From assembly GCA_009781315.1 (NCBI GenBank), contig WQYI01000002.1:61415-125414 (forward strand): a stretch of DNA of 64,000 bases, read 5' to 3'. The DNA comes from Candidatus Endomicrobium embiratermitis. GTDB lineage: Bacteria; Elusimicrobiota; Endomicrobiia; Endomicrobiales; Endomicrobiaceae. Position 1 is the first letter of the stretch; each line of letters begins with the position of its first letter. The notes below the pieces were generated by a model. It did not search any database. It had not been told where the DNA came from and saw only the letters and a list, made by a program, of their open reading frames with translations. Below, piece after piece: positions 1,763 through 61,492 of this stretch. The translations under genes were made by a program, and so were the position numbers.

Positions 1763-1813
1763 TTTTTGCTTTGGCTTTTGAATTTTTGCCTCCTTATACT
1801 CCGGCTCATTTAG

Positions 1814-1915
1814 TTTTAGTCTAAGGATAGGGCGCTCACATCTCGCGTCCGTTGCCAGACTTACGCTCCTTATTCGTCGCGTGGCAACCCGTCTTAAGCG
1901 TCGCAAAAATATCAA
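1814..1915 (-). ncRNA. Candidate structured RNA element, copy A (two hairpins; conserved loop CGACGAAUAAGGAGC)
   Basis: Reverse complement aligns with 47489-47590 and the stem differences are compensatory (see findings). Confidence 0.45.
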
Positions 1916-1973
1916 AATCCTTTGCAAAAAAACTATATAAATTAGTGTTTTGTTTGAGTAAAAAGGAAAAAAT

Positions 1974-3629: not shown

Positions 3630-5369
3630 ATGAAAGAACAAAAATCATTGGATACTTTGAGACATTCCGCGTCGCATATAATGGCTGCGGCCGTTACAGA
3701 ACTTTTTCCGGATACAAAAGTCGCGATAGGCCCTTCCATAGAAGAAGGCTTTTACTACGATTTCGACAGACCCGAGCCGTTTACCCCCGAAGATTTGTCG
3801 AAAATAGAAGAAAAAATGAAAGAGATTATAAAAGAGAATCATCCTTTTGTTTGTTCTTCCGTGCCAAAAGACGATGCGGTCAAAGAATTTAACTCAAAAG
3901 GCGAAAAATACAAAGCCGAAATAGCTTCGGAAATTCCCGATGACAAAGTCAGTATTTATAAATCCGGAGATTTTACCGACCTTTGCAGAGGTCCTCACGT
4001 CGCTTCGACGGGAGAAGTACAAAATTTTAAGCTTCTTTCCGTTGCCGGCGCGTACTGGAGAGGGGATTCTTCAAGAGAGATGCTGCAAAGGATTTACGGC
4101 ACCGCGTTTTTTACAAAAGAAGATTTAGACGAATATTTAAAGAAACTTGAAGAAATACAAAAAAGAGACCACAGAAAACTCGGAAAAGATTTAGACCTTT
4201 TCAGCGTTCACGACGCGGTAGGTGGAGGACTTGTTTTGTGGCACCCAAAAGGCGCTCTTTTAAGAGATATAATCGAAACCTACTGGAAACAGTTTCATAT
4301 TAACAATGGTTACGAGCTGTTGCTTACGCCTCATATAGCAAGCGAAGAACTTTTCAGCATAAGCGGCCATTTGCAGACGTATTCCGAAAATATGTACGCG
4401 CCGATGGAAATAGAGGGCAAACCATACCGCGTAAAACCCATGAATTGCCCCATGCATTTAATGGTGTATAAAACAAAGCTTCACTCTTACAGGGAGCTTC
4501 CGATAAGGTACGCTGAGCTCGGAACGGTTTACAGGTTTGAGAAATCTGGCGTTTTGCACGGACTTTTACGCGTCAGGGGGTTTACGCAGGACGACGGACA
4601 TGTAATAGTTTCTCCGGAACAGCTTGAAGGCGAAATGCTTACGATTTTTAATATGGCCGTAAATATGCTTAAAACTTTCGGTTTTAGCGATTATAAAATT
4701 TATCTTGCCACAAGACCTGAAAAAAAATACGTAGGAGAAGTTTCAGATTGGGAAAAAGCTCAAAAATCAATAGAAAGCGCTTTGAAAAAAACAGGTTATG
4801 AATATGAACTTGACGAAGGCGGCGGCGCTTTTTACGGTCCCAAAATAGACATAAAAATAAAAGACGCCATAGGCAGGCTATGGCAGTGTTCTACTATACA
4901 GTTTGATTTTAACCTTCCGGAAAGATTTGATATTACATATATTGATTCATCCGGAAAAAAAGCAAGACCTTATATGATTCACAGAGCTTTAATGGGTTCG
5001 CTTGAAAGATTTACAGGCGTTTTACTTGAGCATTATTCGGGCGCGCTTCCTTTATGGCTGTCGCCGATACAAGTTGCTATAGCTAATATCAACGATGAGC
5101 AGAGCGAATATTGTAAAGAGTTGCTGGATAAATTGAAAAAAGAGGGAATAAGAGCTGTTTTAGACGACAGAAATGAAAAAATCGGCCATAAAATCAGGGA
5201 AAACGCAATGCAGAAAATACCTTATATAGCGGTTGTAGGAAACAAAGAAAAAGAAGCCGGTTCTGTTGCCGTAAGAGCAAGGGGAAACAAAGATTTAGGC
5301 GTAATTAAAATTGACGATTTTATAAACCTTTTAAAAGAAAAAAGCATTCCCGGCGTAAACGAACTTTAA
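3630..5369 (+). CDS. thrS: Threonine--tRNA ligase (short form lacking the N-terminal TGS domain)
   Basis: 579 aa; begins at the HxxxH editing-domain region ([12 protein letters not shown]), followed by the class II core and a C-terminal anticodon-binding domain. Confidence 0.92.
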
Positions 5370-9069: not shown

Positions 9070-10081
9070 TATCGAACAAATTATTTCGGACGCATTGCAA
9101 AAAATAAATAATTCCGATATTTCCGGACTTGAAGTTTTAAAGGCGGAATATTTAGGTAAAAACGGAGTTGTCACGCAGATTCTCAAATCCCTTTCGCAGT
9201 ACTCCGCGGAAGAAAAGAAAAAAATAGGCGCCGAAGCGAACAGAGCGAAAGATTCGATTGAATCCGCTATTGAACAAAGAGGGGAGTTTTTAAAAAATGC
9301 CGCTCTTGACGAAAAAATGGCCAAAGAAAAAGTCGATTTTTCGCAAATTTTTTATTTTCCTTTTTCAAAAGGCAGCCTGCATCCGGTTTTAAAAACAATA
9401 GAAGACATAAGCGCGGTTTTTAAATCTCTCGGTTTTGTAGTCGCAGAAGGCCCGGAGATTGAAACTGACTGGTACAATTTCGAAGCTTTAAATATTCCCT
9501 CGGATCATCCCGCAAGAGACACTCAGGACACGTTTTATATTGAAGGAATGAAAAACCTGCTCAGAACCCATACTTCTCCCGGACAGATACACGTTATGGA
9601 GAAACAAGAGCCGCCCGTGCGGGTTATAGTCCCGGGCAGAGTTTACAGAAACGAGGCTTCGGACGCTTCGCATTCGTCGACTTTTCACCAAATTGAAGGT
9701 TTGGCTGTTGATGAAAATATAACTTTCGCGGATTTAAAAAGCGTTCTTACGAAATTCGCGCATAAATTTTTCGGGCAGGATTTAGACATACGTTTCAGAC
9801 CGTCGCATTTTCAGTTTACCGAACCTTCGGCTGAAATGGACATGCAGTGCTTTTTCTGCAAAGGAAAAGGCTGCAGAGTATGCAAAAATTCAGGCTGGAT
9901 TGAAACTCTGGGCTGCGGAATGGTACACCCGAATGTGTTGAAAGCGGTAAATTATGACCCTGAGAAATATACGGGTTTCGCGTTCGGCATGGGCGTTGAA
10001 AGAATAACGATGTTGAAATACGGAATATACGATATACGCTTGTTTTACGAAAACGATTTGAGGTTTTTAAAACAGTTTTAA
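9056..10081 (+). CDS. pheS: Phenylalanine--tRNA ligase alpha subunit
   Basis: 341 aa; class II motifs (FRPSHFQFTEPS; GCGMVHPNVL). Confidence 0.92.
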   Translation: MKMNNIEQIISDALQKINNSDISGLEVLKAEYLGKNGVVTQILKSLSQYSAEEKKKIGAEANRAKDSIESAIEQRGEFLKNAALDEKMAKEKVDFSQIFYFPFSKGSLHPVLKTIEDISAVFKSLGFVVAEGPEIETDWYNFEALNIPSDHPARDTQDTFYIEGMKNLLRTHTSPGQIHVMEKQEPPVRVIVPGRVYRNEASDASHSSTFHQIEGLAVDENITFADLKSVLTKFAHKFFGQDLDIRFRPSHFQFTEPSAEMDMQCFFCKGKGCRVCKNSGWIETLGCGMVHPNVLKAVNYDPEKYTGFAFGMGVERITMLKYGIYDIRLFYENDLRFLKQF

Positions 10082-12537: not shown

Positions 12538-12545
12538 TCCTAGTT

Positions 12546-12613
12546 GTCATTCCGTTGGAAAACGGGATCCACGTTATTAGTTAAAAATGGATTCCGTTTT
12601 TCAACGGAATGAC
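12546..12613. repeat. Nested palindrome, GTCATTCC-type
   Basis: gtcattccgttggaaaacgggatcc ... ggattccgttttcaacggaatgac. Confidence 0.7.
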
Positions 12614-15831: not shown

Positions 15832-15920
15832 GAAGTTGAGAAGATGGGAAGCTGAGATGTTGAGCAACGACTTTGTCTTTGCTTTTTCCAAACTTCTCAT
15901 CATCTCATCTTCTTATCTTC
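15832..15920. repeat. Composite palindromic element, GAAGTTGAGAAG family (family 3), copy 1
   Basis: 5' arm gaagttgagaagatgggaagctgagatgttgagcaacgac is nearly identical to the arm at 28094; 3' arm ccaaacttctcatcatctcatcttcttatcttc. Confidence 0.7.
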
Positions 15921-15925
15921 TGCCT

Positions 15926-18611: not shown

Positions 18612-18790
18612 AAACGATTTTTCGTTTTGTTTATTCAAGCGCCGAGCGCATTCATTAAAAATTTTTAAAACAATTTGCGGAACTTGCGGCAGATAAAGAC
18701 TTATAAGGTTGCCGCTTCAAACAGTCCTCAATAGATTTTTAAAAAAATTTAATTCATAGACCGCGCTAATGCGCTTTGCATAAACAAAAC
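18612..18790 (-). mobile_element. MITE-like ~175-bp element with terminal inverted repeats (same family as 52262-52440, opposite orientation)
   Basis: The reverse complement aligns along its whole length with 52262-52440; termini gttttgtttatgcaaagcgc / gcgcttgaataaacaaaac. Confidence 0.7.
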
Positions 18791-18892
18791 AGGGTATTTC
18801 AAGACAACGACAAAGACGAGGAGGCTAGTATTTAAAGCAAGCAGTTGGAAAGGCAGGTAGTATTAGCAGTGATAATATATCTATAAATAAAA

Positions 18893-26755: not shown

Positions 26756-26880
26756 TTACTTGTCTTTAAATATCCGGAGCGTTCTATTCGTCTGTCATTC
26801 CCGCGAAAGCGGGAATCCAAGTTTAACATGACTCCCCTATTAAGACATTCGGGGATGACAAAAGGAAGGGTTTAAAACCT
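26756..26880. repeat. Palindromic element, GTCATTCCCGCGAAAGCGGGAATC type
   Basis: gtcattcccgcgaaagcgggaatc plus tcccctattaagacattcggggatgacaaaagg; the same core recurs at 40355-40390. Confidence 0.65.
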
Positions 26881-26928: not shown

Positions 26929-28101
26929 ATGAATAAAAAGCAATTGAGCGGTTACGTATCTGATATAATTGAAGATATAAAAGAAAACGGCGATAAAGCC
27001 GTTTATAAATATCTCAAAAAATTTGACGGCGTTGATTTATCGCTAAAAGGATATAAAATATCTAAAAAAACGATAGACGATGCTGCCAAACGCGTTTCTC
27101 CCTCTTTAAAAAATGCTATAAAATCATCGTATCTTAATATTTTGTCATACCATAAATACGAATATTTGCAAATTAAAAAAAGCTGGGTCAGAAATAAAAA
27201 CGGCGTTAAGACGGGTCAATTTTACTCTGCGGTTGAGTCCGCGGGGATATATGTTCCGGGCGGTAAATTCCCTTATCCTTCTACTGTTATAATGACTGCC
27301 GTTCCTGCAAAAGCCGCGGGAGTTAAAAGAATTGTCATGGTAACCCCGCCAAATAATATTAGCGATGAAGTTCTTTATGCCGCTCAACTTTGCGGCGTTA
27401 CGGATGTATACGGCGTAGGCGGAATTATGGCGATTGCCGCTCTTGCTTACGGCACGCAGACAGTTAAAAAAGTCGATATTATAGCAGGTCCCGGAAACGC
27501 CTATGTGAACGAGGCCAAAAGGCAGGTTTTCGGCCGGGTAGGCATAGATTCTTTGGCAGGTCCCAGCGAAGTGGCTATAATAGCCGATAAAAGCGTTCCC
27601 GTAAAATACGTTGTTGCCGATATTATGGCGCAGGTTGAACATGACGCTATGGCTAAAGCTTATTTGTTTTGCGAAAGCCAATCAAAGATTGGGAAAATAA
27701 AAGAAGCTTTGCCAAAAGAAGCTCTTAGTCAGGTTGAAATTGAACTTTGTTCATTAGATAAAGCGGTTGAAAAAGTAAATAAAATCGCTCCAGAACATCT
27801 TGAGATTCTTGTTGAAAATTATTTAAAACTTGTCAAAAACATTAAAAACGCCGGCGCAATTTTTGCGGGTTATCAAACGCCTACGGCCGCCGGAGATTAC
27901 TGGGCGGGACCGTCTCATGTTTTGCCTACAAACGCTTCCGCGAAGTTTTCAAGCGGGTTGTCTGTTATGTCGTTTTTGAAAAGGACGACATATATTGAAT
28001 TGAACAAAAATAATGCTAAAGCCTATAAAGAAATTGCGGATTTTGCGCGCTGCGAAGGAATGAAATATCATAAAGAATCGGCCGATATAAGAAGAAGTTG
28101 A
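26929..28101 (+). CDS. hisD: Histidinol dehydrogenase
   Basis: 390 aa; Zn/NAD-binding motifs (AGPSEVAII; EHLEI). Confidence 0.88.
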   Translation: MNKKQLSGYVSDIIEDIKENGDKAVYKYLKKFDGVDLSLKGYKISKKTIDDAAKRVSPSLKNAIKSSYLNILSYHKYEYLQIKKSWVRNKNGVKTGQFYSAVESAGIYVPGGKFPYPSTVIMTAVPAKAAGVKRIVMVTPPNNISDEVLYAAQLCGVTDVYGVGGIMAIAALAYGTQTVKKVDIIAGPGNAYVNEAKRQVFGRVGIDSLAGPSEVAIIADKSVPVKYVVADIMAQVEHDAMAKAYLFCESQSKIGKIKEALPKEALSQVEIELCSLDKAVEKVNKIAPEHLEILVENYLKLVKNIKNAGAIFAGYQTPTAAGDYWAGPSHVLPTNASAKFSSGLSVMSFLKRTTYIELNKNNAKAYKEIADFARCEGMKYHKESADIRRS

Positions 28102-28204
28102 GAAGTTGGGCAGCTGGGAAGTTGAGCAACGACGAAGGTAAAGACAAAAGACGAAACGACCACAGCTCCTCTCAGCTTCTCAACTGCCAAGCTCTCTAAA
28201 CTTC
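28094..28204. repeat. Composite palindromic element, family 3, copy 2; its 5' arm overlaps the hisD stop codon
   Basis: gaagttgagaagttgggcagctgggaagttgagcaacgacgaagg ... cagctcctctcagcttctcaactgccaagctctctaaacttc. Confidence 0.7.
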
Positions 28205-29675: not shown

Positions 29676-30397
29676 TAGTAATTCCCGCGATTGATATAAG
29701 ACAAGGAAATTCCGTAAGGCTTAAACAGGGGAAAATTGACGCTGAAACCATTTATTCTACAGATCCTGTTTTTATCGCAAAACTTTGGAAAGCGAAAGGC
29801 GCGCAAAGAATTCACGTCGTGGATTTGGACGGGGCGTTCAGCGGCTTAAACAGCAATAAAGAAATTATAAAACAGATATGCGCTTCAATGGATATTCCCG
29901 TGGAAGTCGGCGGCGGAATAAGAACCATGGAAAGATTAAAAGAAGTGTTTGATATGGGCGCGTCTTATGCGATTTTGGGGACAGTAGCCGTATATAATCC
30001 GGAAATTGTCCGCAAAGCAGTCGATAAATACGGTCCGAAAAAAATCATAATCTCTATAGACGCGAAAGACGGAAAAGTTGCAATAGGCGGCTGGAAAGAC
30101 ATTACGCCTGTCGATATGTTTGAACTTATAGATAAATTGAAAGAAGCCGGCATAAAAGATATTTTGTACACGGATATTTCAAGAGACGGAATGTTAACAG
30201 GCCCCGATTTTAGCGGACTTAAGAAAATTTCAAAAACAGGAATGAGAATAATCGCTTCCGGCGGAATAAAAACCGTAGATGACATAGTAAAACTCAAAGG
30301 GCTTGAAAAAGACGGCGTTTTTGCCGCGATAGTCGGCAGCGCTTTATATACGGATGATTTCAAGCTTGAAGAAGCAATAAAAAAAGCAGAGGATTAG
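29672..30397 (+). CDS. hisA: ProFAR isomerase (1-(5-phosphoribosyl)-5-[(5-phosphoribosylamino)methylideneamino]imidazole-4-carboxamide isomerase)
   Basis: 241 aa; begins [17 protein letters not shown]; TIM barrel; 4-nt overlap with hisH. Confidence 0.9.
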
Positions 30398-30493
30398 AGG
30401 CAAAGAGGCAGGGATGCAGAGTAACTGCTCTTGAAATAAAGGCAGTTTTTGTTGTCTTTGCTCCGCATCTTTGCATCCTCGCATCCATGCATC
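30398..30493. repeat. Composite palindromic element, family 4, copy 3 (between hisA and hisF)
   Basis: aggcaaagaggcagggatgcagag ... ctccgcatctttgcatcctcgcatccatgcatc. Confidence 0.7.
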
Positions 30494-35922: not shown

Positions 35923-37176
35923 ATGTTCTTTGAATCGTTAAAAGAATATGAAGGAATGAAGCCGGGTCTTTCAAGAATAAAAAAATTTCTTGATAGCGTC
36001 GGAAATCCTCAAAATAAATTTAATTGCGTTCATATAGCGGGAACAAACGGTAAAGGTTCCACTGCGGCTTTTATAGACGCTGTTTTAAAAGAAAACGGTT
36101 ATAAAACCGCTCTTTACACTTCTCCGCATTTGACGGATATTAACGAACGCATAAAAGTATGCGGAAAAAATATCCCGAAAAATAAATTTAACTACATAGC
36201 CCAAAAATATATAAAACATGCCATACAATGCGAACTTTCTTATTTTGAATATCTTACCGCTATAGCTTTTATATATTTTGCCGGGCAAAAAATCGATATT
36301 GCCGTAATAGAAACAGGACTTGGCGGCAGATTTGATGCCACTAATGTTATTGAAAAACCTTTGGGTTCGGTTATCACTTCCATATCTTTTGACCATAAGG
36401 AAATTTTAGGAAATACCATTGAAAAAATAGCGTCTGAAAAAGCGGGTATTATAAAAAAAGGAGCTTTTACCGTTTGTTCTAAAGTTCCCGCTGCGGCTTT
36501 GAGAGTAATACGCGGTAAAGCAAGAAATGTTCAGAGCCGGGTTTATATTTTAAATAAAGATTTCTTTATAAAGAACGCGACCGATAAAGAGTTTGACTAT
36601 CACGGCATTGAAAAAAATATACAAGATATAAAATTATCCCTTATAGGCAAACATCAGTTTAATAATGCCGCGACGGCTCTTTGCGTTATTGAACTTTTAA
36701 CAAAAAACGGCTATGCTTTTAGCGATGAAAAAATAAAAAAAGCCTTGATTTCCGCGGTTTGGAACGCAAGATTTGACGTAAGAAAAGTAAAATTTAACAA
36801 TAGAAAATTTGAACTTGTTATAGACGGCGCGCACAATGAAGAGGGAATAAACGCCTTTATCGAAACCTGGAATAACAGCGCATATTGTAAAAAGAAACGA
36901 AGTTTCATTTTTGCGGTGATGAAAGAAAAAAATTATAAGAAAATAGCGAAGAAAATAGCTTGTTTGGCGGACGAGGTAATTTTACCGGATTTAAAAACCG
37001 ACAGAGCCGTGCCGCAAAACGTTTTAAAAACGGAATTTTTAAAATATATGGAAGATGAGAGTAAAATTTATCGCGCGGGTTCCGTAAAAGAAGCCTTAAA
37101 TATTATAAAAAACAAGGGTAAAGCGGCGGCAGTAGGTTCTCTTTATCTTGCGGGCGAGATTTTAAAAAATATATAA
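35923..37176 (+). CDS. folC: Folylpolyglutamate synthase / dihydrofolate synthase
   Basis: 417 aa; Mur-ligase P-loop GTNGKGST. Confidence 0.88.
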   Translation: MFFESLKEYEGMKPGLSRIKKFLDSVGNPQNKFNCVHIAGTNGKGSTAAFIDAVLKENGYKTALYTSPHLTDINERIKVCGKNIPKNKFNYIAQKYIKHAIQCELSYFEYLTAIAFIYFAGQKIDIAVIETGLGGRFDATNVIEKPLGSVITSISFDHKEILGNTIEKIASEKAGIIKKGAFTVCSKVPAAALRVIRGKARNVQSRVYILNKDFFIKNATDKEFDYHGIEKNIQDIKLSLIGKHQFNNAATALCVIELLTKNGYAFSDEKIKKALISAVWNARFDVRKVKFNNRKFELVIDGAHNEEGINAFIETWNNSAYCKKKRSFIFAVMKEKNYKKIAKKIACLADEVILPDLKTDRAVPQNVLKTEFLKYMEDESKIYRAGSVKEALNIIKNKGKAAAVGSLYLAGEILKNI

Positions 37177-37185
37177 TTCAAACAA

Positions 37186-37308
37186 CAAAGTTGAAAGTGA
37201 AGAGAGAAAAGAGGAAATGTCGTATTTCGGCAAATCCGAAATTAATTTTAGGTTTTCGCTTTGCGAAAACACAATAATTTCACTTTTAACTTTACACTTT
37301 TCACTTTT
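37186..37308. repeat. Composite palindromic element, family 2 (AAAGTGAAAAGTG)
   Basis: Arms caaagttgaaagtgaagagag / ttcacttttaactttacacttttcacttttc; core hairpins tttcggcaaatccgaaa and ttttcgctttgcgaaaac. Confidence 0.75.
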
Positions 37309-37324
37309 CTTTTGAGGTATTAAA

Positions 37325-38272
37325 ATGTCAAAACAGCAATTTTATCTCGGAATAGACATGGGCGGAACTCATATTAAAATCGCTATAGTTGATTCTTCAT
37401 GTAACATTGTCGAAGAAACCGTTCTTGACACGGACATAAAAGCCACTCCTATAGACGTTATCAAATCCATAATTTCAAAAGCTTCGGAGATGAAAAATTA
37501 TTCAAAAGTAAAAAGCATAGGCATAGGCATGGCCGGCGATATAAACTGTTTTGACGGAAGCGTGCGTTTTTCTCCGAATCTTCCGAAGTGGAAAAATATC
37601 GCGTTGAAAAAAATTATAGAAAATCTTACAAAGAAGAAAACTATTGTGGATAATGACGCCAATACCGCTTCCATAGGGGCGTTTTGGCTTGACGCTAAAG
37701 GTAAAGCCGAAAATCTTGTATGCGTTACTTTGGGGACTGGTGTCGGAGGGGGATTTATTCTTGATAAAAAACTTTACAGAGGGTCGTCTTGTAGCGCCGG
37801 AGAAATAGGGCATATTACCATTGATCCTTGCGGAGACGTCTGCAAATGCGGCAACAGAGGCTGTGTAGAAACATTTATAGGCGCGAAATATATTTCAAAA
37901 TATGCCGCGCGGTATTTAAAGAAAAATAAATCCGAATTAATAAATAAACTTACAAACGGCGATTATTCCAAGGTTACTCCGAGAATTTTGTATTTGGCTG
38001 CCAAAAAAGGCGATAAGGCGGCAATATCAATCTGGAAATATGTCGGGGAAAAACTCGGAATACTGTTTGCCGGCATACTTAATTTTATAAATCCGGATGT
38101 CATTGTTTTGTGCGGCGGCGTAAGCCACGCAGGAAAATATCTTATAGACCCCGCAAGACGCGAAATGAAATCCAGGGCATTCGCTTCGGCGGTGAAAAAT
38201 TGCAGCATTGTAGTTTCAAAATATACAAACAAACTCGGAGTGGTCGGCGCCGCTATGCTTCCGAAACAGTAA
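37325..38272 (+). CDS. glk: ROK-family glucokinase
   Basis: 315 aa; DxGGT ATPase motif; ROK Cys cluster CGxxGC. Confidence 0.8.
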   Translation: MSKQQFYLGIDMGGTHIKIAIVDSSCNIVEETVLDTDIKATPIDVIKSIISKASEMKNYSKVKSIGIGMAGDINCFDGSVRFSPNLPKWKNIALKKIIENLTKKKTIVDNDANTASIGAFWLDAKGKAENLVCVTLGTGVGGGFILDKKLYRGSSCSAGEIGHITIDPCGDVCKCGNRGCVETFIGAKYISKYAARYLKKNKSELINKLTNGDYSKVTPRILYLAAKKGDKAAISIWKYVGEKLGILFAGILNFINPDVIVLCGGVSHAGKYLIDPARREMKSRAFASAVKNCSIVVSKYTNKLGVVGAAMLPKQ

Positions 38273-40314: not shown

Positions 40315-40450
40315 TTAGGAATTAGGAGTGAGGAGTTAGGAATTAACGACAAAAGACTTTGTCATTCCCGCGAAAGCGGGAATCTAAGTTTTCTAAAAGT
40401 TTGCGGCGAAGCCGCTCCAAAATTCCTAATTCCTAATTTCTAACTCCTAA
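40315..40450. repeat. Composite palindromic element, ATTAGGAATTAGGAG arm flavour
   Basis: Arms attaggaattaggagtgaggagttaggaatt / aattcctaattcctaatttctaactcctaatt; core gtcattcccgcgaaagcgggaat plus tttgcggcgaagccgctccaaaatt. Confidence 0.75.
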
Positions 40451-46006: not shown

Positions 46007-46102
46007 GAAGTTTAGATGTTTGGCAGCTTGGAAGCTTGGCAAAAACAAAAGGCAGTTACTAAGCTTCCAAACTTCTAAGCTCTCTAAACTCTCTAAACTT
46101 CT
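46007..46102. repeat. Composite palindromic element, family 3, copy 3 (between tadB and tadC)
   Basis: gaagtttagatgtttggcagcttggaagcttggc ... aagcttccaaacttctaagctctctaaactctctaaacttc. Confidence 0.7.
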
Positions 46103-47001: not shown

Positions 47002-47035
47002 TTTTAATCCTCGCTTGCCTTTGCCGTTAAATATC

Positions 47036-47098
47036 GGTTTTGTTTATGTAAAGCGCGTTAGTGCGAATGCGTGCGGCGCTTGAATAAACAAAACAAAA
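47036..47098. mobile_element. Internally deleted derivative of the MITE-like element (terminal inverted repeats only)
   Basis: gttttgtttatgtaaagcgcgttagtgcg ... cgtgcggcgcttgaataaacaaaac, matching both ends of 52262-52440. Confidence 0.6.
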
Positions 47099-47106
47099 AA
47101 TATTGA

Positions 47107-47135
47107 TTGACAAAAAAAAATATTTTTTCTATATT
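47107..47135 (+). promoter_or_regulatory. Sigma-70-type promoter for the tRNA-Lys/tRNA-Glu pair (TTGACA-N17-TATATT)
   Basis: ttgacaaaaaaaaatattttttctatatt, about 70 nt upstream of tRNA-Lys. Confidence 0.5.
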
Positions 47136-47203: not shown

Positions 47204-47276
47204 GGGCCCGTAGCTCAGCCGGTAGAGCACCTCACTTTTAATGAGGTTGTCGTGCGTTCGAGCCGCACCGGGCTCA
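47204..47276 (+). tRNA. tRNA-Lys (anticodon TTT)
   Basis: Acceptor GGGCCCG/CGGGCTC plus A; anticodon stem CCTCA/TGAGG, loop CTTTTAA; T-arm GTGCG-TTCGAGC-CGCAC. Confidence 0.9.
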
Positions 47277-47287
47277 TTTTTAATCAA

Positions 47288-47360
47288 GCCCCCATCGTCT
47301 AGGGGTCTAGGACACATGATTTTCAATCATGCGACCGGGGTTCAAATCCCCGTGGGGGCG
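47288..47360 (+). tRNA. tRNA-Glu (anticodon TTC)
   Basis: Acceptor GCCCCCA/TGGGGGC plus G; anticodon stem CATGA/TCATG, loop TTTTCAA; T-arm CGGGG-TTCAAAT-CCCCG. Confidence 0.9.
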
Positions 47361-47488
47361 TTTTTAACTTCGTCTTTTAAGCTTATACAGCGTCAGAGGT
47401 TCGCTCATTTACCGTTTGCTTTCGTAAACTTCGCCAGCCTCTTCCTTGTCTAAACTTAAAATACTTCGTTAAATTTATGGTAACCATA

Positions 47489-47590
47489 TTGATTTGCTGT
47501 CGCAAGCGTCAGTCGCCGTGCGACGAATAAGGAGCACAAGTTTGGCGACGGGTGCAAGATGGTGAGCACCCAATCCTTTAAGAGAATCCT
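47489..47590 (+). ncRNA. Candidate structured RNA element, copy B (two hairpins; conserved loop CGACGAAUAAGGAGC)
   Basis: Aligns with the reverse complement of 1814-1915; the stems differ by compensatory substitutions. Confidence 0.45.
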
Positions 47591-47701
47591 TGTAAAAATT
47601 AATATATAAATAAAATATTTCGCTAAAAGATATTATTTCAAATACAACCGTTTAGACTTTAGAGCAACAGTTTAAACGGTTATTTTATGGAAGGTGGAAA
47701 A

Positions 47702-48991: not shown

Positions 48992-49013
48992 TAAAAGCAG
49001 AGTAAGAATAATA

Positions 49014-49146
49014 AAAAGTGTAAAGTTGAAAGTTAAAAGTGAAAATTACGTGTTTTCGCTTTGCGAAAACTAATTAATTTGATTTCGGCTTTGTCGAAAT
49101 TCATTATTTTAACTTTGCACTTCTCACTTTTCACTTTGTCGTTAAA
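49014..49146. repeat. Composite palindromic element, family 2 (core hairpins in swapped order)
   Basis: aaaagtgtaaagttgaaagttaaaagtgaaaat ... gttttcgctttgcgaaaac ... gatttcggctttgtcgaaat ... ctttgcacttctcacttttcactttgtcgttaaaaaagg. Confidence 0.75.
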
Positions 49147-49159
49147 AAAGGCGGAGCCT

Positions 49160-51263: not shown

Positions 51264-52178
51264 ATGAAAAGACATTTTTCTATCGCCGTATGTTTGGTAT
51301 TTATTATGAGCGTTTTTATCCCGTCTTTTTTGCATGCGGAAGATTATATGGTCTACGAAGACGGAGTTGTTGTTATGGTTGAAGACAAAAATTCTGAAGA
51401 TGAGACGGCCTCCGTAAATAAAAATGACGACGAAAATGATGTAAGCGAAGAAACGACAACCGTTACTGACGAGCACAAAGACTCGGAAGATGATAATACG
51501 GCGTCCGTAAATGAAAATGAGAACGAAAATGCAAGCGAAGAACCGACAACCGTTACTGACGAGCGCAAAAATTCGGAAGATAATAAAACGGCGGCCGTAA
51601 ATAAAAATAACGACGAAAATGTAAGCGAAGAAACGAAAACCGTTGCTGACGAGCGCAAAGATTCGGAAGATAATAAGACTGCATCCGTAAATGAGAATGA
51701 AGACGAGGATGAAAATAGTTTTGTCTACATAGGAAACGAAAGGAAAACTCGCGCAAATGCGAGTAAATTTAATGAATCCGGTAACGATAATGTTTCTGTA
51801 AATGAAAATAAAGAAAGAGGCGTAAAGGCACAGACGGCAAAGCCGAAACCGCAACAAGCGAAACCGCAGCAAGCGCAAAATACAGGTCCTAAACCTAACC
51901 AGGACGAACAGGCAATAGCAAAAAAAGTTCAGGAATATTATAATGAGTTTATGAAAAATCCTAAAGTGGTATCTTTTATTAAGTTTCTTTCAAAAAGATG
52001 GGAAGAAATAAAAGCTTTTGTTTCTGAGCTTCCGGGAATCAAGCAGTATAACAACTCTATATATACAAACGAAAACTACAAAAAAGAGATGGGAGCTTTT
52101 TCCACTGAATACAAACCTCATATACAGAGTAACAGCGAAGGCGTTCAAAAAGCCAAAGAAGGTGCAAAAAAGCTTTAA
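51264..52178 (+). CDS. Secreted acidic tandem-repeat protein (hypothetical)
   Basis: Signal peptide, then about 3.5 imperfect ~31-aa repeats (TTTVTDE[HR]K[DN]SED[DN][NK]TA[SA]VN[EK]N[EDN]...), a Q/P-rich segment (KPKPQQAKPQQAQNTGPKPNQ) and a folded-looking ~100-aa C-terminal domain. Confidence 0.6.
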   Translation: MKRHFSIAVCLVFIMSVFIPSFLHAEDYMVYEDGVVVMVEDKNSEDETASVNKNDDENDVSEETTTVTDEHKDSEDDNTASVNENENENASEEPTTVTDERKNSEDNKTAAVNKNNDENVSEETKTVADERKDSEDNKTASVNENEDEDENSFVYIGNERKTRANASKFNESGNDNVSVNENKERGVKAQTAKPKPQQAKPQQAQNTGPKPNQDEQAIAKKVQEYYNEFMKNPKVVSFIKFLSKRWEEIKAFVSELPGIKQYNNSIYTNENYKKEMGAFSTEYKPHIQSNSEGVQKAKEGAKKL

Positions 52179-52261
52179 TATCGTAAATTTTGTGCTTCTT
52201 CTTTCCGAGGCTGTTGAGAGAGAAAATTACTGGAATTTATTTATAAATTTTTGTCTTTAAA

Positions 52262-52440
52262 AACCCTGTTTTGTTTATGTAAAGCGCATTAGCGTGGCTT
52301 ATGAATTAAAAATTTTTAAAAATCTTGAGGACTGTCCGAAGCGGCAACCTTATAAGCCTTTATTTGCCGCAAGTTCCGCAAACTGTTTTAAAAATTTTTA
52401 ATGAATGCGCTCGGCGCTTGAATAAACAAAACGAAAAAGC
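52262..52440 (+). mobile_element. MITE-like ~175-bp element with ~20-bp imperfect terminal inverted repeats
   Basis: gttttgtttatgtaaagcgcattagcg ... cgctcggcgcttgaataaacaaaacg, with internal sub-palindromes; full copy at 18612-18790 (inverted) and deleted copy at 47036-47098. Confidence 0.7.
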
Positions 52441-53208: not shown

Positions 53209-55527
53209 ATGGCACAAAACACTAAAGAGGAGCTTATTTCCGAAAACAGTGCAAAACTTGAAAAAAACGCGCTTACGGTTTTGCAAAAAAGATATTTAGG
53301 AAAAGACAGTAACGGCAATATAATTGAAGAACCGGAAGATTTATTTTACAGAGTGGCCGAAAATATTGCCCAGGCTGATAAAATATATGATAAAGACGCG
53401 GATTTGGCGTTTTTGATCAAAGAATTCTATTTGGCTATGTCGTCCCTTGATTTTTTGCCTAACTCTCCGACTTTGATGAACGCAGGCAGGCATTTACAGC
53501 AGCTTTCGGCGTGTTTTGTGCTTCCGATAGAAGATTCAATGGATTCTATATTTGAAACCCTTAAAAATACCGCTCTTATACATAAGTCGGGCGGCGGAAC
53601 TGGATTTTCTTTTTCAAGGCTGCGTCCTAAAAATGATAATGTAAAAACCACAAGCGGCGTGTCTTCGGGACCGGTATCTTTTATGCAGGTTTTTAACGCC
53701 GCTACGGAAGCCATTAAACAGGGCGGAACAAGACGCGGCGCGAATATGGGTATGCTTCGCGTTGATCATCCGGACATTTTAGACTTCATTACCTGTAAAG
53801 ACAGAAACGACAGCCTCAATAATTTCAATATTTCCGTGGCCGTGACAAAAGAGTTTATGGAGGCTTTGGAAGAAGAGACTGACTATAATCTTTATAATCC
53901 GCGCACTAAAGAAGCGGCGGGAACGCTTAACGCAAAAGAAGTTTTCAATAAAATAGTCGATCAGGCGTGGAAAAACGGCGAGCCGGGTATAGTTTTTATA
54001 GACAGGATGAACGACGCTAATCCTACTCCCGAAGCGGGGCTTATTGAATCGACAAACCCATGCGGCGAACAGCCGCTTCTCCCTTACGAGTCTTGCAATT
54101 TAGGATCGATAAATTTAAGTCATTTTGTAAAAGAGGGACAGGTTGACTGGGAAAGGCTTGAGAGTATTATTAAAACGGCGGTTCATTTTTTGGATAATGT
54201 TATAGACATGAACAATTATCCGATACAAAAAATCGGCGAGACCACGCGTTCTAACAGAAAAATCGGGCTTGGCGTTATGGGATGGGCTGATATGCTTTTA
54301 AGTTTAGGCATACCGTACGGTTCGCATGATTCTTTAATGCTTGCGGAAAAAGTTATGGGTTTTATACAATCCAAGTCGCACGAAGCTTCCGAAGAACTTG
54401 CTCTTAAAAGAGGAGCTTTCCCGAATTTTAAACAAAGTATATACGGCAAAGGAAATCCTATAAGAAACGCTACTACCACGACTATTGCTCCGACAGGCAC
54501 AATAGGCATTATAGCGTCGGCTTCGGGCGGTATAGAACCTATTTTTGCGCTTGTCTATAAAAGGGCAAATTGTCTGGATAACGCGGAAATGTACGAAGTG
54601 AACCCTCATTTTGAAAAAGTCGCAAAAGAACAGGGATTTTATTCCGCCGAACTTATGGATAAAATTGCCGAAAAAGGCAGCGTGCACGGGTTAAAAGAAG
54701 TTCCGGAAAAAATAAAAAAAGTTTTCGTCACCGCTCAGGACATTACGCCCGAAGACCATATAAGAATGCAGGCGGCTTTCCAGAAATTTACGGACAATGC
54801 CGTGTCAAAAACCGTAAACTTTCCTAATTCCGCTACTAAAGAAGACGTAAAAAAAGTTTATATGCTTTCGTATAAAATGGCTTGCAAAGGCGTAACGGTT
54901 TACCGCGACGGCAGCAGGGATTTACAGGTTTTAAATCTGGCAAATAAAAAAGAAACCGTTCAGTCTCAAGGAGAAATTAAAGAAAAAAAGCCGAGAACCA
55001 GGCCTAAAAAAACAATGGGATTCACGTTTTTAATGCATACGGGCTGCGGAAAGATGTATGTTACGATAAATGAAGATGAGCAGGGAGCGTGCGAGTTGTT
55101 TACGCAGCTCGGTAAATCAGGAGGCTGTACGTCGTCCCAGTCTGAAGCGGTCGCCCGTATGATTTCTTTGGCATTGCGTTCCGGCGTTAATCAGCAGGAT
55201 ATAATAAATCAGTTAAAAGGCATAAGATGTCCGTCGCCGACTTTGGCCGAAGGCGGAGCTATATTGTCTTGCGCGGACGCGGTTGCAAAAGCCCTCGAAG
55301 CTTACGCAAAAGAAAAACAAACTCCGGCTCTTTTTACCGAGGAAGTGATAAATTCCGAGCCGTATGCTCCGGTTGAAGAAAATAGCCGCCCTTCGGCGTC
55401 GTATTCTTCGGATATAAAAAATAATTTTTCAGGTTCATGCCCGCAATGTCCGGAATGCGGAGAGATGCTTACTTTTTCCGAAGGGTGCGTTGTGTGCAGG
55501 GACTGCGGATATAGTAAATGCTGGTAG
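53209..55527 (+). CDS. nrdJ: Adenosylcobalamin-dependent ribonucleoside-diphosphate/triphosphate reductase (class II, NrdJ)
   Basis: About 772 aa from MAQNTKEEL; active-site NPCGEQPL motif; C-terminal CxxC...CxxC zinc ribbon. Confidence 0.88.
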   Translation: MAQNTKEELISENSAKLEKNALTVLQKRYLGKDSNGNIIEEPEDLFYRVAENIAQADKIYDKDADLAFLIKEFYLAMSSLDFLPNSPTLMNAGRHLQQLSACFVLPIEDSMDSIFETLKNTALIHKSGGGTGFSFSRLRPKNDNVKTTSGVSSGPVSFMQVFNAATEAIKQGGTRRGANMGMLRVDHPDILDFITCKDRNDSLNNFNISVAVTKEFMEALEEETDYNLYNPRTKEAAGTLNAKEVFNKIVDQAWKNGEPGIVFIDRMNDANPTPEAGLIESTNPCGEQPLLPYESCNLGSINLSHFVKEGQVDWERLESIIKTAVHFLDNVIDMNNYPIQKIGETTRSNRKIGLGVMGWADMLLSLGIPYGSHDSLMLAEKVMGFIQSKSHEASEELALKRGAFPNFKQSIYGKGNPIRNATTTTIAPTGTIGIIASASGGIEPIFALVYKRANCLDNAEMYEVNPHFEKVAKEQGFYSAELMDKIAEKGSVHGLKEVPEKIKKVFVTAQDITPEDHIRMQAAFQKFTDNAVSKTVNFPNSATKEDVKKVYMLSYKMACKGVTVYRDGSRDLQVLNLANKKETVQSQGEIKEKKPRTRPKKTMGFTFLMHTGCGKMYVTINEDEQGACELFTQLGKSGGCTSSQSEAVARMISLALRSGVNQQDIINQLKGIRCPSPTLAEGGAILSCADAVAKALEAYAKEKQTPALFTEEVINSEPYAPVEENSRPSASYSSDIKNNFSGSCPQCPECGEMLTFSEGCVVCRDCGYSKCW

Positions 55528-55534
55528 TATACGA

Positions 55535-55666
55535 CAAAGTAGAAAGTTAAAAGTGTAAAGTGAAAATATTGTGTTTCGGCAAAGCCGAAACAGAGTTTAG
55601 GTTTTTGCAAAGCAAAAACACATCTTAACTTTTAACTCTTCACTTTTCACTTTGTCGTTAAAAAAG
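55535..55666. repeat. Composite palindromic element, family 2
   Basis: caaagtagaaagttaaaagtgtaaagtgaaaat ... gtttcggcaaagccgaaac ... gtttttgcaaagcaaaaac ... cttaacttttaactcttcacttttcactttgtcgttaaaaaaggg. Confidence 0.8.
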
Positions 55667-55672
55667 GGATTT

Positions 55673-60502: not shown

Positions 60503-61357
60503 ATGTTTAAACTAAATCCTAAACTATCACAGAAAATTTCATATTCGATTTTATTTTGCGCGACGATACTTGCCATTATTCCGGTGGCAGTCATTATTTT
60601 TATTATTATAAAAAACGGCGCCTCGGCGATAACATGGGAATTTTTAACTTCTATGCCCAAAAACGGCATGAGAGGCGGAGGTATTCTTCCCGCTATAATA
60701 GGAACACTTTCGATAGTTATGTGCGCTATTGCCGTCACTTTGCCGATAGGTGTTTGCGCGGCTATATATTTAAACGAGTATGCGAAAGACAATCTGCTTA
60801 CAAGAATAATAAAACTTGCGATCGTAAATCTTGCGGGCGTTCCGTCGGTAGTATACGGGTTGTTCGGGCTCGGAATTTTCGTAATGTTTTTAAAACTCGG
60901 CGTGTCGATTATTGCCGGAGCCTTAACTTTGGCTATAATGGAGTTACCGGTAATTATAACTACGGCAAGAGGCGCGCTAAACAGCGTGCCGTATTCTTTC
61001 AGGGAAGCAAGCTTATCTTTAGGCGTAAGCCGCTGGCAGACTATAAGGCATGTTGTTTTGCCTAATGCTTTGCCGGGAATTTTAACGGGAGCGATTTTAA
61101 GCATAGCAAGAATTTCGGGAGAAACCGCGCCGATAATGTTTACCGCGGCGGCTTTTTATGTTCCGCATCTTCCGACGTCCGCTTTTGACCAGGTTATGGC
61201 TTTACCGTACCATTTGTATATTATTTCAACCCAGATACCGGGTATGCCCAAAAACATAATTTTCGGCACGGCTTTGGTTTTATTAATGATGGTTTTATCG
61301 ATGAGCTTAATCGCTATAATAGCAAGAATATATTTCAGAAAACGCAGAAAATGGTAA
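60503..61357 (+). CDS. pstA: Phosphate ABC transporter permease
   Basis: Begins MFKLNPK...; 6 TM helices. Confidence 0.85.
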   Translation: MFKLNPKLSQKISYSILFCATILAIIPVAVIIFIIIKNGASAITWEFLTSMPKNGMRGGGILPAIIGTLSIVMCAIAVTLPIGVCAAIYLNEYAKDNLLTRIIKLAIVNLAGVPSVVYGLFGLGIFVMFLKLGVSIIAGALTLAIMELPVIITTARGALNSVPYSFREASLSLGVSRWQTIRHVVLPNALPGILTGAILSIARISGETAPIMFTAAAFYVPHLPTSAFDQVMALPYHLYIISTQIPGMPKNIIFGTALVLLMMVLSMSLIAIIARIYFRKRRKW

Positions 61358-61360
61358 TTT

Positions 61361-61492
61361 TAACGACAAAGTGAAGAGTGAAAAGTGTAGAGTGTAAATA
61401 TTGTGTTTCGGCGAAGCCGAAACGGATTAAATGTTTTTGCAAAGCAAAAACTCATTATTTCCACTTTTAACTTTCAACTTTTCAAATTGTCT
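61361..61492. repeat. Composite palindromic element, family 2 (between pstA and pstB1)
   Basis: acgacaaagtgaagagtgaaaagtgtagagtg ... gtttcggcgaagccgaaac ... gtttttgcaaagcaaaaac ... ccacttttaactttcaacttttcaaattgtc. Confidence 0.8.

Follow-up and report, generated by a model that had tools for sequence, protein, structure and literature searches.

The 64,000-nucleotide (nt) stretch of Candidatus Endomicrobium embiratermitis analysed here (contig WQYI01000002.1, positions 61,415 to 125,414; hereafter the window) contains two copies, A and B, of a short sequence that we call element E. Element E is a structure-constrained, strand-specific element, either RNA or single-stranded DNA, and it typically sits at the apex of other hairpins, including the loops of tRNA genes. 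The explanation that we favour, with a probability of roughly 0.55, is that E is a dispersed module that nests in hairpin tips, and that A and B are not the ends of an invertible segment. E represents an undescribed family of ~75-nt double-hairpin elements, found so far only in Endomicrobia and other Elusimicrobiota. Related loci that were compared with the window carry L-numbers as labels (L003, L030, L044, etc.).

Fold and family membership of element E

The core of copy A lies at 1830–1888 on the minus strand, as defined by a covariance model and by alignment with the 22 other copies, and the core of copy B lies at 47512–47571 on the plus strand. An initial annotation of the window had reported two such copies in opposite orientation about 45.5 kilobases (kb) apart, and the repeat finder, a MAFFT alignment and the covariance model all recover them. 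The repeat finder pairs 1839–1888 with 47512–47561 as an inverted repeat (I10; 50 nt, 80% complementary, 45,623 nt apart). The reverse complement of A aligns with B at 79% column identity across ~140 nt, and the longest unbroken identity is 16 nt (GCGACGAATAAGGAGC). The covariance model was built from 23 copies of E and was run over the whole window with filters off, giving 77.4 bits for 1812–1893 on the minus strand (E-value 1.4e-17) and 75.4 bits for 47507–47589 on the plus strand (E-value 4.4e-17). These scores are unsurprising because both copies were part of the training alignment; what is informative is the lack of any third site in the window, the next-best match reaching 7.6 bits.

From 5' to 3', element E consists of helix P1 (7 base pairs, bp), helix P2 (3 bp), the 12-nt loop L1 (GACGAAUAAGGA), the second strand of P2, a bulge CAAGU(U), the second strand of P1 and, directly adjoining it, helix P3 (6 bp). 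P3 is usually GGGCGC/GCGCCC and closes a loop of 9–12 nt with the form GAG-N(1–3)-GUGA. In copy A the 5' strands of P1 and P2 are found at 1882–1888 and 1879–1881, L1 at 1867–1878, the 3' strand of P2 at 1864–1866, the bulge (UAAGUC) at 1858–1863 and the 3' strand of P1 at 1851–1857, followed by the two strands of P3 (1845–1850 and 1830–1835) around the loop GAGAUGUGA (1836–1844). The corresponding parts of copy B are P1 and P2 (47512–47518 and 47519–47521), L1 (47522–47533), the 3' strand of P2 (47534–47536), the bulge CAAGUU (47537–47542), the 3' strand of P1 (47543–47549) and P3 (47550–47555 and 47566–47571) around the loop AAGAUGGUGA (47556–47565). When parsed independently of the model, copy A has 7 of 7 positions paired in P1 and 5 of 6 in P3, and copy B has all positions paired in both helices (7/7 and 6/6).

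The core of copy A is followed by a 3' tail, UAUCCUUAGACUAA (1816–1829, minus strand), that forms part of the inserted block, being absent from the empty carrier in L044 when filled and empty sites are aligned. The span originally assigned to copy A, 1814–1915, thus corresponds to the core, this tail and a carrier arm at 1889–1917. Across the family the tails are of two types. The type CGGAA accompanies 5' flanks that end in GG, and the type (A/U)AUCC those that end in CA or A, so the flanks share no one conserved target tetranucleotide.

The helices of E covary. In the model-fitted alignment 91.6% of the cells are paired, against 20–56% in controls in which the partner strand was slid, 15 of the 16 pairs have changed on both sides, and none of 500 shuffles reaches the observed values, figures that are to be read with the copies being related to one another and the alignment being fitted to the structure. 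A and B themselves differ by compensatory changes, namely GUUGCCA/UGGCAAC against GUCGCCG/UGGCGAC and ACGC/GCGU against GUGC/GCAC. The model-independent parse counted 332 Watson-Crick, 14 G-U, 3 A-C and 17 G-A cells, the last mostly from a recurrent tandem G-A variant of P1 (GYGAGUG/CACGARC). As G-U cells far outnumber A-C cells (14 vs 3), the fold has been selected on one strand only (minus in A, plus in B). Therefore E must act, or be recognised, as a single strand of RNA or DNA. The combination of compensatory helices with wobble pairs limited to one strand also bears out the earlier view that the copies form one family, whose conservation we find to be that of a folded single strand with defined polarity.

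In total we count 23 distinct full copies, the two of the window and 21 elsewhere, plus one partial copy at a contig end. The further copies come from contigs of Endomicrobium, Endomicrobiellum and other Elusimicrobiota and were found by exact-pattern scans built on the conserved loops. Scans of species-representative genomes gave eight true copies: two in Ca. Endomicrobium labiotermitis, four in Ca. E. neocapritermitis, one in Ca. Endomicrobiellum siamense and one in a metagenome-assembled genome (MAG) of Elusimicrobiota. Many more copies occur in metagenomes, mostly from Joint Genome Institute (JGI) projects that also gave termite-named Endomicrobium MAGs. The covariance model separates the true copies from seven chance pattern matches (L005, L010, L012, L013, L024, L027 and L028), which were rejected with at most 23 bits or no match at all. 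It found only two diverged relatives, in L035 (8468–8549) and in E. proavitum (L041, 16534–16601), both with altered loops. The window belongs to a metagenomic contig of about 210 kb, and the proteins that it encodes are 82–89% identical to those of Endomicrobium and Endomicrobiellum.

No Rfam family matches element E. At the gathering threshold Rfam 15 identified only the tRNAs in the whole window, and at E-values up to 10 both loci gave only chance matches (≤16.7 bits against cut-offs of at least 44), none fitting the whole element. Nineteen related loci contained only tRNA, rRNA and group I introns according to Rfam. Scanning 2.9 million viral contigs gave no true copy, the two chance matches there both falling within coding sequence, and nothing was found in the literature on the loop sequence and on RNA motifs of Endomicrobia.

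Three other features were considered for E and rejected. A short open reading frame (ORF; AUG to UGA) occurs in the P3 loop but lacks conservation, and the way in which the stems covary is incompatible with coding. A pseudoknot between UAAGGA of L1 and UCCUUA of the tail is possible only in the subset of copies borne by one carrier hairpin (Y, see below), and in these the tail has the UAAGGA of the carrier itself as an alternative partner. ARAGORN finds no tmRNA or tRNA-like gene at the element.

Hairpin carriers and tRNA loops

Three tRNA genes lie in the window, each on the plus strand and called by both ARAGORN and Rfam: tRNA-Leu(UAA) at 1676–1763, and tRNA-Lys(UUU) (47204–47276) and tRNA-Glu(UUC) (47288–47360), which form an operon with a promoter-like site at 47107–47135 in a consensus scan. 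Copy A had been described as lying about 50 nt from the 3' end of tRNA-Leu and copy B about 130 nt from tRNA-Glu. These distances hold, as the model match of A ends 49 nt away and the core of B begins 152 nt, and its carrier hairpin ~126 nt, after tRNA-Glu. The gene beyond copy A (1974–2843), annotated as ParB-like, has a Pfam match to DUF4032, whose homologues some sources call ParB-family or ParB-domain proteins.

Both copies are embedded in larger units. Copy A sits at the apex of a carrier hairpin that we call Y, and the composite (1776–1917, minus strand; from a fold of 1776–1920) occupies the trailer of tRNA-Leu. Its closing stem, in which UUUUGAUAUUUUUGC (1903–1917) pairs with GCAAAAAUUCAAAA (1776–1789), begins 13 nt past the 3' end of the tRNA. 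Y is seen in three states: empty behind tRNA-Glu of E. proavitum (L041, 9680–9775; 96 nt, −37.8 kcal/mol, z −5.2), filled with copy A in the window, and filled in L030. From the alignment of A with B and direct reading, composite B (47486–47605, plus strand) comprises E, the tail AAUCCUUUAA and flanks similar to the outer part of the stem that closes Y (AUAUUGAUUUGC...GUAAAAAUUAAUAU). Its inner flanks are unlike those of composite A, and the helix that closes it has little energetic support (z −0.55).

Between tRNA-Glu and copy B the window carries hairpin X (47374–47468, plus strand), a member of another family of tRNA-trailer hairpins. The X unit of ~100 nt (CTTTTGAGTTTATACTGCGTCAGAG...CTCTTCCTTGTCTAAACTCAAAATACTTCGCAAAAA) is found directly 3' of tRNA genes. 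In E. proavitum (CP009498; L047, 9464–9990) about four full tandem copies and a divergent fifth lie between tRNA-Leu and the DUF4032 gene, and in L045 X follows tRNA-Leu (9860–9950). X also adjoins elements in L035 (8418–8478) and L030 (about 4870–4930). By direct reading X and Y share the inverted termini CTTTTGA(G/A)TTT...AAA(C)TCAAAA, and both begin ~8–17 nt from the tRNA 3' end. Since these carriers occupy tRNA trailers in relatives that lack E, the tRNA proximity of A and B is largely a property of the trailer hairpins. The adjacency to tRNA genes noted earlier is therefore real in the window but largely inherited from the carriers, and with such placement the opposite orientation of A and B needs no special meaning.

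The sites of A and B in related genomes show how sporadic the element is. The order tRNA-Lys–tRNA-Glu–purA is kept in five related loci (L038–L042, including E. proavitum; PurA 82–88% identical), and E is absent from the tRNA-Glu–purA spacer in all five. Likewise, four loci (L044–L047; DUF4032 63–87% identical) keep the order of oxidoreductase operon, tRNA-Leu(UAA) and DUF4032 gene, and none of the four has E in the tRNA-Leu–DUF4032 spacer. In L044, whose DUF4032 protein is 87% identical, the same 100-nt carrier Y is empty at the exact site of copy A. The empty site reads ...GCGGCGGCGUUUAGGCGGG|AACUUAAUGAGCCCGGGCAUAAGGAAGCAAAAAUUCAAAAG and the filled site of the window ...GCGACGCUUAAGACGG|[element + UAUCCUUAGACUAA]|AACUAAAUGAGCCGGAGUAUAAGGAGGCAAAAAUUCAAAAG, so that an insert of ~73 nt occupies the carrier tip. 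This junction shows no terminal inverted repeats and no target-site duplication. In the converse case, L008 has E between hisD and a small ORF preceding hisB, and the equivalent spacer of the window has no E. None of the nine related loci carries both copies, and on these comparisons A and B are best described as lineage-specific insertions.

In the 2-oxoacid:ferredoxin oxidoreductase operon itself, two of the relatives (L044, 3850–4191; L047, 6790–7137) have a gene for a PF05635 '23S rRNA intervening-sequence protein', which is absent from that operon in the window, L045 and L046.

Apical placement is seen well beyond Y. The flanks of E are complementary beyond the shuffled expectation (z < −2) in 9 of 20 copies. 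In L004, L007 and L014 the element lies between 20-bp inverted arms (GTCATTGCGGCC.../...GGCCGCAATGAC) that resemble repetitive extragenic palindromes (REP), and GTCATTGCG... arms, akin to the REP-like family described below, flank it in L003, L004, L007 and L014. Arms of the type CCCTCGCCCC.../...GGGTGAGGGG surround E in L011, L022, L023 and L025, the last of these with E 83 nt after 5S rRNA, and other closing helices surround it in L032 and L035.

The REP-like hairpin family TGTCATTCCCGCGAAAGCGGGAATCCAAGTTT recurs in intergenic spacers of several Endomicrobia genomes. It was seen in the window at 12545–12576, 26793–26824 and 40360–40391, and in L038 (9750–9850) and L025 (880–950).

In L030 a tRNA-Ser(CGA)-like gene (4560–5200, minus strand) has matching acceptor halves and three inserts. 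One copy of E follows G18G19 of the D-loop and a second copy lies in the T-loop; as at the site of copy A, neither junction has terminal inverted repeats or a target duplication. The third insert, of 385 nt, is bounded by 32-bp inverted repeats (GGCTTCTCTTTTGAATATAGCGCGCTTGCGTT) and encloses an intact tRNA-Ser(CGA). If the three inserts are deleted in silico and the lost TTC of the T-loop is restored, ARAGORN calls a tRNA-Ser(CGA). Because of the 385-nt insert and the intact tRNA-Ser(CGA) alongside, the interrupted gene looks like a pseudogene, and the 385-nt insertion looks as if it had brought the replacement tRNA.

Fragments of tRNA genes accompany E at other loci. In L009 and L006 the 18–22 nt before E are identical to the 5' part of a tRNA located ~100 nt downstream, which in L006 holds a group I intron. 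A unit of tRNA-Ser 5' end, E and spacer is tandemly repeated in L015, and L019 has a tandem unit of tRNA-Lys 3' end, 48 nt and element-like sequence, with a repeat of 68 nt that includes the tRNA-Lys 3' end. We considered the tRNA-identical 18–22 nt as a guide joined to E as scaffold, as in omega-RNA or single-guide RNA. This idea was dropped because most 5' flanks are unrelated to one another and have no second match in the locus, and because L030 is a plain D-loop insertion.

Group I introns interrupt the tRNA anticodon loops in L006 (7253–7864) and L032 (1132–1430), with Rfam scores of 70 and 77 bits. The intron of L006 has an ORF of 122 amino acids that is Cys-rich with HH motifs and looks by eye like an HNH endonuclease; no Pfam match was obtained at E 0.001.

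Explanations for the placement of the element

We propose that E becomes lodged at the tips of hairpins that were already present, among them Y, palindromes of the REP-like type, and both the D- and the T-arm of tRNA genes. A and B would then be old, diverged, lineage-specific arrivals in or next to tRNA-trailer hairpins, which would account for both their tRNA proximity and their arbitrary relative orientation. E is non-autonomous: it contains no ORF and has neither terminal inverted repeats nor a target duplication. It might spread in part with its carriers, when carrier copies recombine with one another and through local duplication in tandem, and in part alone into hairpin loops by means of a factor supplied in trans. 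The conserved fold could be what this factor, or an RNA-binding partner of the host, recognises.

Several points weigh against this explanation. Neither a mobilising gene nor a mechanism was identified for E. The apparent invariance of the loop CGACGAAUAAGGAG stems from the search, since both patterns required this sequence. The copies are 80–90% identical and no near-identical pair was seen within one genome, so recent activity of E has no evidence in its favour. About half of the copies, including copy B, have no convincing closing helix, and all of the data on E are from metagenomic contigs. Around 10 of the 23 copies have a tRNA or rRNA gene, or a fragment of one, no more than 300 nt away, a share well above a rough intergenic expectation for which no background was computed. 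The copies may instead be retained because they serve the host, and the covariation among paralogous copies may reflect either selection on the host or selection on a replicating lineage.

A further-reaching proposal is that E is the recognition module of a new mobility system that targets hairpin loops as single-stranded DNA or RNA, or else a new catalytic or processing RNA that makes insertions harmless. We regard this as rather unlikely. The targets of such a mobility system would include the D- and T-loops of tRNA, and it would generate duplicated 5' and 3' ends of tRNA genes. In either form E would represent a new class of small mobile structured element in bacteria that needs a factor in trans.

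An RNA gene family that tends to sit near tRNA genes had been the preferred interpretation in the initial annotation. In this case the copies of E would be independently transcribed, trans-acting small RNA (sRNA) genes, perhaps working through UAAGGAG in L1, a perfect match to the Shine-Dalgarno consensus that could mimic such a site. The strong strand-specific conservation of structure with compensatory changes fits an sRNA, as do several copies per genome that have diverged yet still fold, and tRNA and rRNA genes are frequent neighbours. With this loop E may bind the ribosome or a protein; a sequence like it (GUAUAAGGAGG) is present in carrier Y. The diverged relative in E. proavitum, however, has lost GGAG from its loop. 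Consensus scans picked up the promoters of the tRNA genes, but ahead of A and B they showed none on the strand of E, nor any terminator-like site after either copy, these scans being crude (sigma-70-like) and possibly unsuited to a host whose promoters are uncharacterised. E is moreover embedded at hairpin apices and in the loops of a tRNA pseudogene, and it is absent from the orthologous sites of close relatives. What stands of the earlier interpretation is the frequent position beside stable-RNA genes, and a free-standing sRNA gene, for which these crude scans gave neither consensus promoter nor terminator-like site, is an unlikely identity for E.

It had also been suggested that copies at loci unrelated to tRNA in related genomes, together with no evidence of inversion, would reduce the tRNA association to a coincidence of placement. 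In other genomes copies lie in the hisD–hisB spacer, upstream of gyrA, after 5S rRNA and inside the tRNA pseudogene.

Alternatively, E could be a cis module used by the host at the hairpin tips of stable-RNA or 3' untranslated region (UTR) transcripts, where it would be co-transcribed and would bind a partner, direct processing or form a stabilising cap. The upstream neighbour is on the same strand in 11 of the 14 copies inspected, and the consensus scan gave no terminator-like site between the tRNA-Glu/tRNA-Lys operon and copy B. The position after 5S rRNA in L025, a copy upstream of tRNA-Ser in L009, the copies beside duplicated tRNA-Ser 5' ends in L015 and the preservation of structure in diverged copies would also agree with a cis function. 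Against it, copy A and the copy in L014 are antisense to both neighbours, so that read-through would yield the wrong strand. Sporadic presence at the same operons in close relatives is hard to square with a needed function, and no partner is known. We give such a module a small chance of being correct, similar to that of the sRNA genes.

The idea that E is a new small self-cleaving ribozyme or an RNase-recognition element, which would let structured RNAs tolerate insertions, is improbable. Known parallels are small ribozymes, which turn up in diverse genomic settings, and the intervening sequences that RNase III removes from rRNA. The size of E, its multi-copy occurrence in varied contexts, its conserved unpaired nucleotides beside covarying helices and its location at helix tips in tRNA genes would all suit a ribozyme. 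No Rfam ribozyme family is similar, though, and the tRNA gene with two copies, given its 385-nt insert and the intact tRNA-Ser(CGA) beside it, resembles a pseudogene.

The duplicated tRNA ends might instead mark remnants of attachment sites of integrative elements that target tRNA genes. This would explain the direct repeats beside E, which consist of 18–22 nt from the 5' part of a tRNA in L006, L009 and L015, and of 68 nt with the tRNA-Lys 3' end in L019. Only 110–220 nt separate the repeats, however, and no integrase gene or ORF lies between them. What is repeated is the 5' portion of the tRNA as far as the D-loop, an unusual geometry for an integrase target. L015 and L019 consist of tandem units, most copies have no tRNA fragment, and the viral contigs hold no true copy. 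Remnant attachment sites are quite improbable.

Inversion of the 45.6-kb segment between A and B, which the initial annotation had raised as its second interpretation, is very improbable. The opposite orientation of the copies and the block of housekeeping genes between them speak for it. As the annotation itself pointed out, the identity of A and B (80%, longest exact match 16 nt) is too low for efficient homologous exchange. GC skew does not change sign at 47.5 kb, being positive on both sides (about +0.10 to +0.17), and its only dip, at 12–22 kb, is internal to the segment. Relatives in which the local synteny on each side is kept have neither copy, and the copies themselves are lineage-specific. 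A better pair of repeats is also available. A non-coding ~190-nt element has two inverted copies (18618–18807 and 52251–52438; 89–92% identity, 33.5 kb apart), which by their length and identity would be a much better recombination substrate than A and B.

This ~190-nt element has terminal inverted repeats (GTTTTGTTTAT.CAA.GCGC) and looks like a miniature inverted-repeat transposable element (MITE). A short version, consisting mainly of the two termini, lies at 47030–47101 just upstream of the tRNA-Lys promoter. Other repeats of the window include purine-rich quasi-periodic sequences (types GATGCAGAG and GAAGTTGAGAAG) that form long imperfect hairpins with their complements in several spacers (1166–1211, 1498–1600, 15832–15921, 28094–28200, 30374–30493 and 46007–46046); one of them occupies the hisD–hisB spacer, which in L008 carries E. 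A family of ~130-nt repeats occurs in both orientations, with AAAGTG-rich arms around small GTTTCGGCAAAGCCGAAAC or GTTTTCGCTTTGCGAAAAC hairpins (37174–37328, 49005–49151, 55526–55667 and 61355–61488). Finally, a 90-nt tandem repeat of ~3.5 units (51400–51714; 79–87% identity) lies within the ORF at 51264–52178 and is probably a repetitive protein segment.

That copy B is a riboswitch or leader controlling purA can be dismissed with as much assurance as the inversion: it does lie on the same strand ~130 nt upstream of the start codon, but the purA genes of five relatives have no E, four of the five keep a separate hairpin of their own before the ribosome-binding site (that of E. proavitum has diverged), and the genes downstream of other copies are unrelated or missing. 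A leader would have a constant 5' UTR position before related genes, and both the neighbours of E and their relative orientations vary. Downstream of E we found purA, an antisense tRNA, gyrA, the small ORF before hisB, tRNA-Ser, convergent genes and a membrane protein gene. Copy A is followed by the antisense of tRNA-Leu and then by the 2-oxoacid:ferredoxin oxidoreductase operon, and the earlier argument that it is no 5' leader is upheld by this variety of neighbours.

The separate purA hairpin, AACCGTTTAGAC...GTTTAAACGGTTATTTT, is found in the window at 47645–47686 (plus strand), directly before the ribosome-binding site and independent of E. In relatives it was located at 9935–9990 (L038), 9950–9985 (L039) and 9950–9990 (L042). 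It has no Rfam match at the gathering score and looks like a purA leader or attenuator.

Comparison with known small dispersed elements

Small structured repeats are usually dismissed as assembly clutter. In E, covarying helices and wobble pairs confined to one strand give a conservation signature as distinct as in curated RNA families, although Rfam has no entry for it. The element occupies hairpin tips with precision, both loops of the tRNA elbow among them, and is linked with duplicated tRNA ends and tandem units. It is a tractable case for studying the spread of non-autonomous elements among termite-gut symbionts with reduced genomes, and the possible use of such elements by their hosts. 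For annotation, E accounts for several puzzling 'tRNA fragments' and for conserved spacers that lack annotation in MAGs of Endomicrobia, and a false lead is removed, as there is no support for an invertible 45-kb segment.

In function E comes closest to the REP/REPIN repeats of bacteria, the palindromic elements of Rickettsia, the small dispersed repeats of cyanobacteria and the hairpin elements of mitochondria. REP, BIME and REPIN sequences are palindromic repeats mobilised by RAYT transposases. Like E they are short non-coding intergenic repeats, often located after genes, with compensatory upkeep of hairpins and with nesting and composites. E differs in having two dissimilar hairpins with large conserved loops and a bulge, and is not a simple palindrome; it is neither an imperfect palindrome of 20–40 nt arranged in inverted doublets, nor does it have a conserved head of the GTAG type. 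It is rather an apical insert inside REP-like hairpins (L003, L004, L007 and L014). MITEs and palindrome-associated elements derived from IS200/IS605 resemble E in being small and non-autonomous with a potential for secondary structure. The terminal inverted repeats typical of MITEs are present in X, Y and the ~190-nt element of the window but not in E, which has no target-site duplication either.

The palindromic elements of Rickettsia and the small dispersed repeats of cyanobacteria are small selfish sequences that enter genes or RNA genes, or nest inside other repeats, while preserving the secondary structure of the host. They differ from E in sequence, size and architecture, and reach very high copy numbers, against 2–4 copies per genome sample for E. 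The intervening sequences of bacterial 23S rRNA are limited to helices 25 and 45, from which RNase III excises them. They share with E that a stem-loop replaces a helix tip in a stable-RNA gene and that they are sporadic among close relatives. E is mostly found outside stable RNAs, however, and the sole E-bearing tRNA gene that we have seen looks like a pseudogene.

The mitochondrial double-hairpin elements, repetitive hairpin-forming elements and GC clusters of fungi, sponges and yeast (PMC2800124, PMC4478555) are also tiny and dispersed, with one or two hairpins and no encoded enzyme, and are found between genes and occasionally in rRNA or other genes. They are copied singly and within larger duplicated blocks (PMC2800124), much as we propose for E. 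Their stems are conserved and their loops vary (PMC2800124), whereas the stems of E covary and its loop residues outside the search patterns are conserved. These elements are organellar and unrelated to E in sequence, while E has a bacterial host and a preference for hairpin apices that extends to the D- and T-loops of tRNA.

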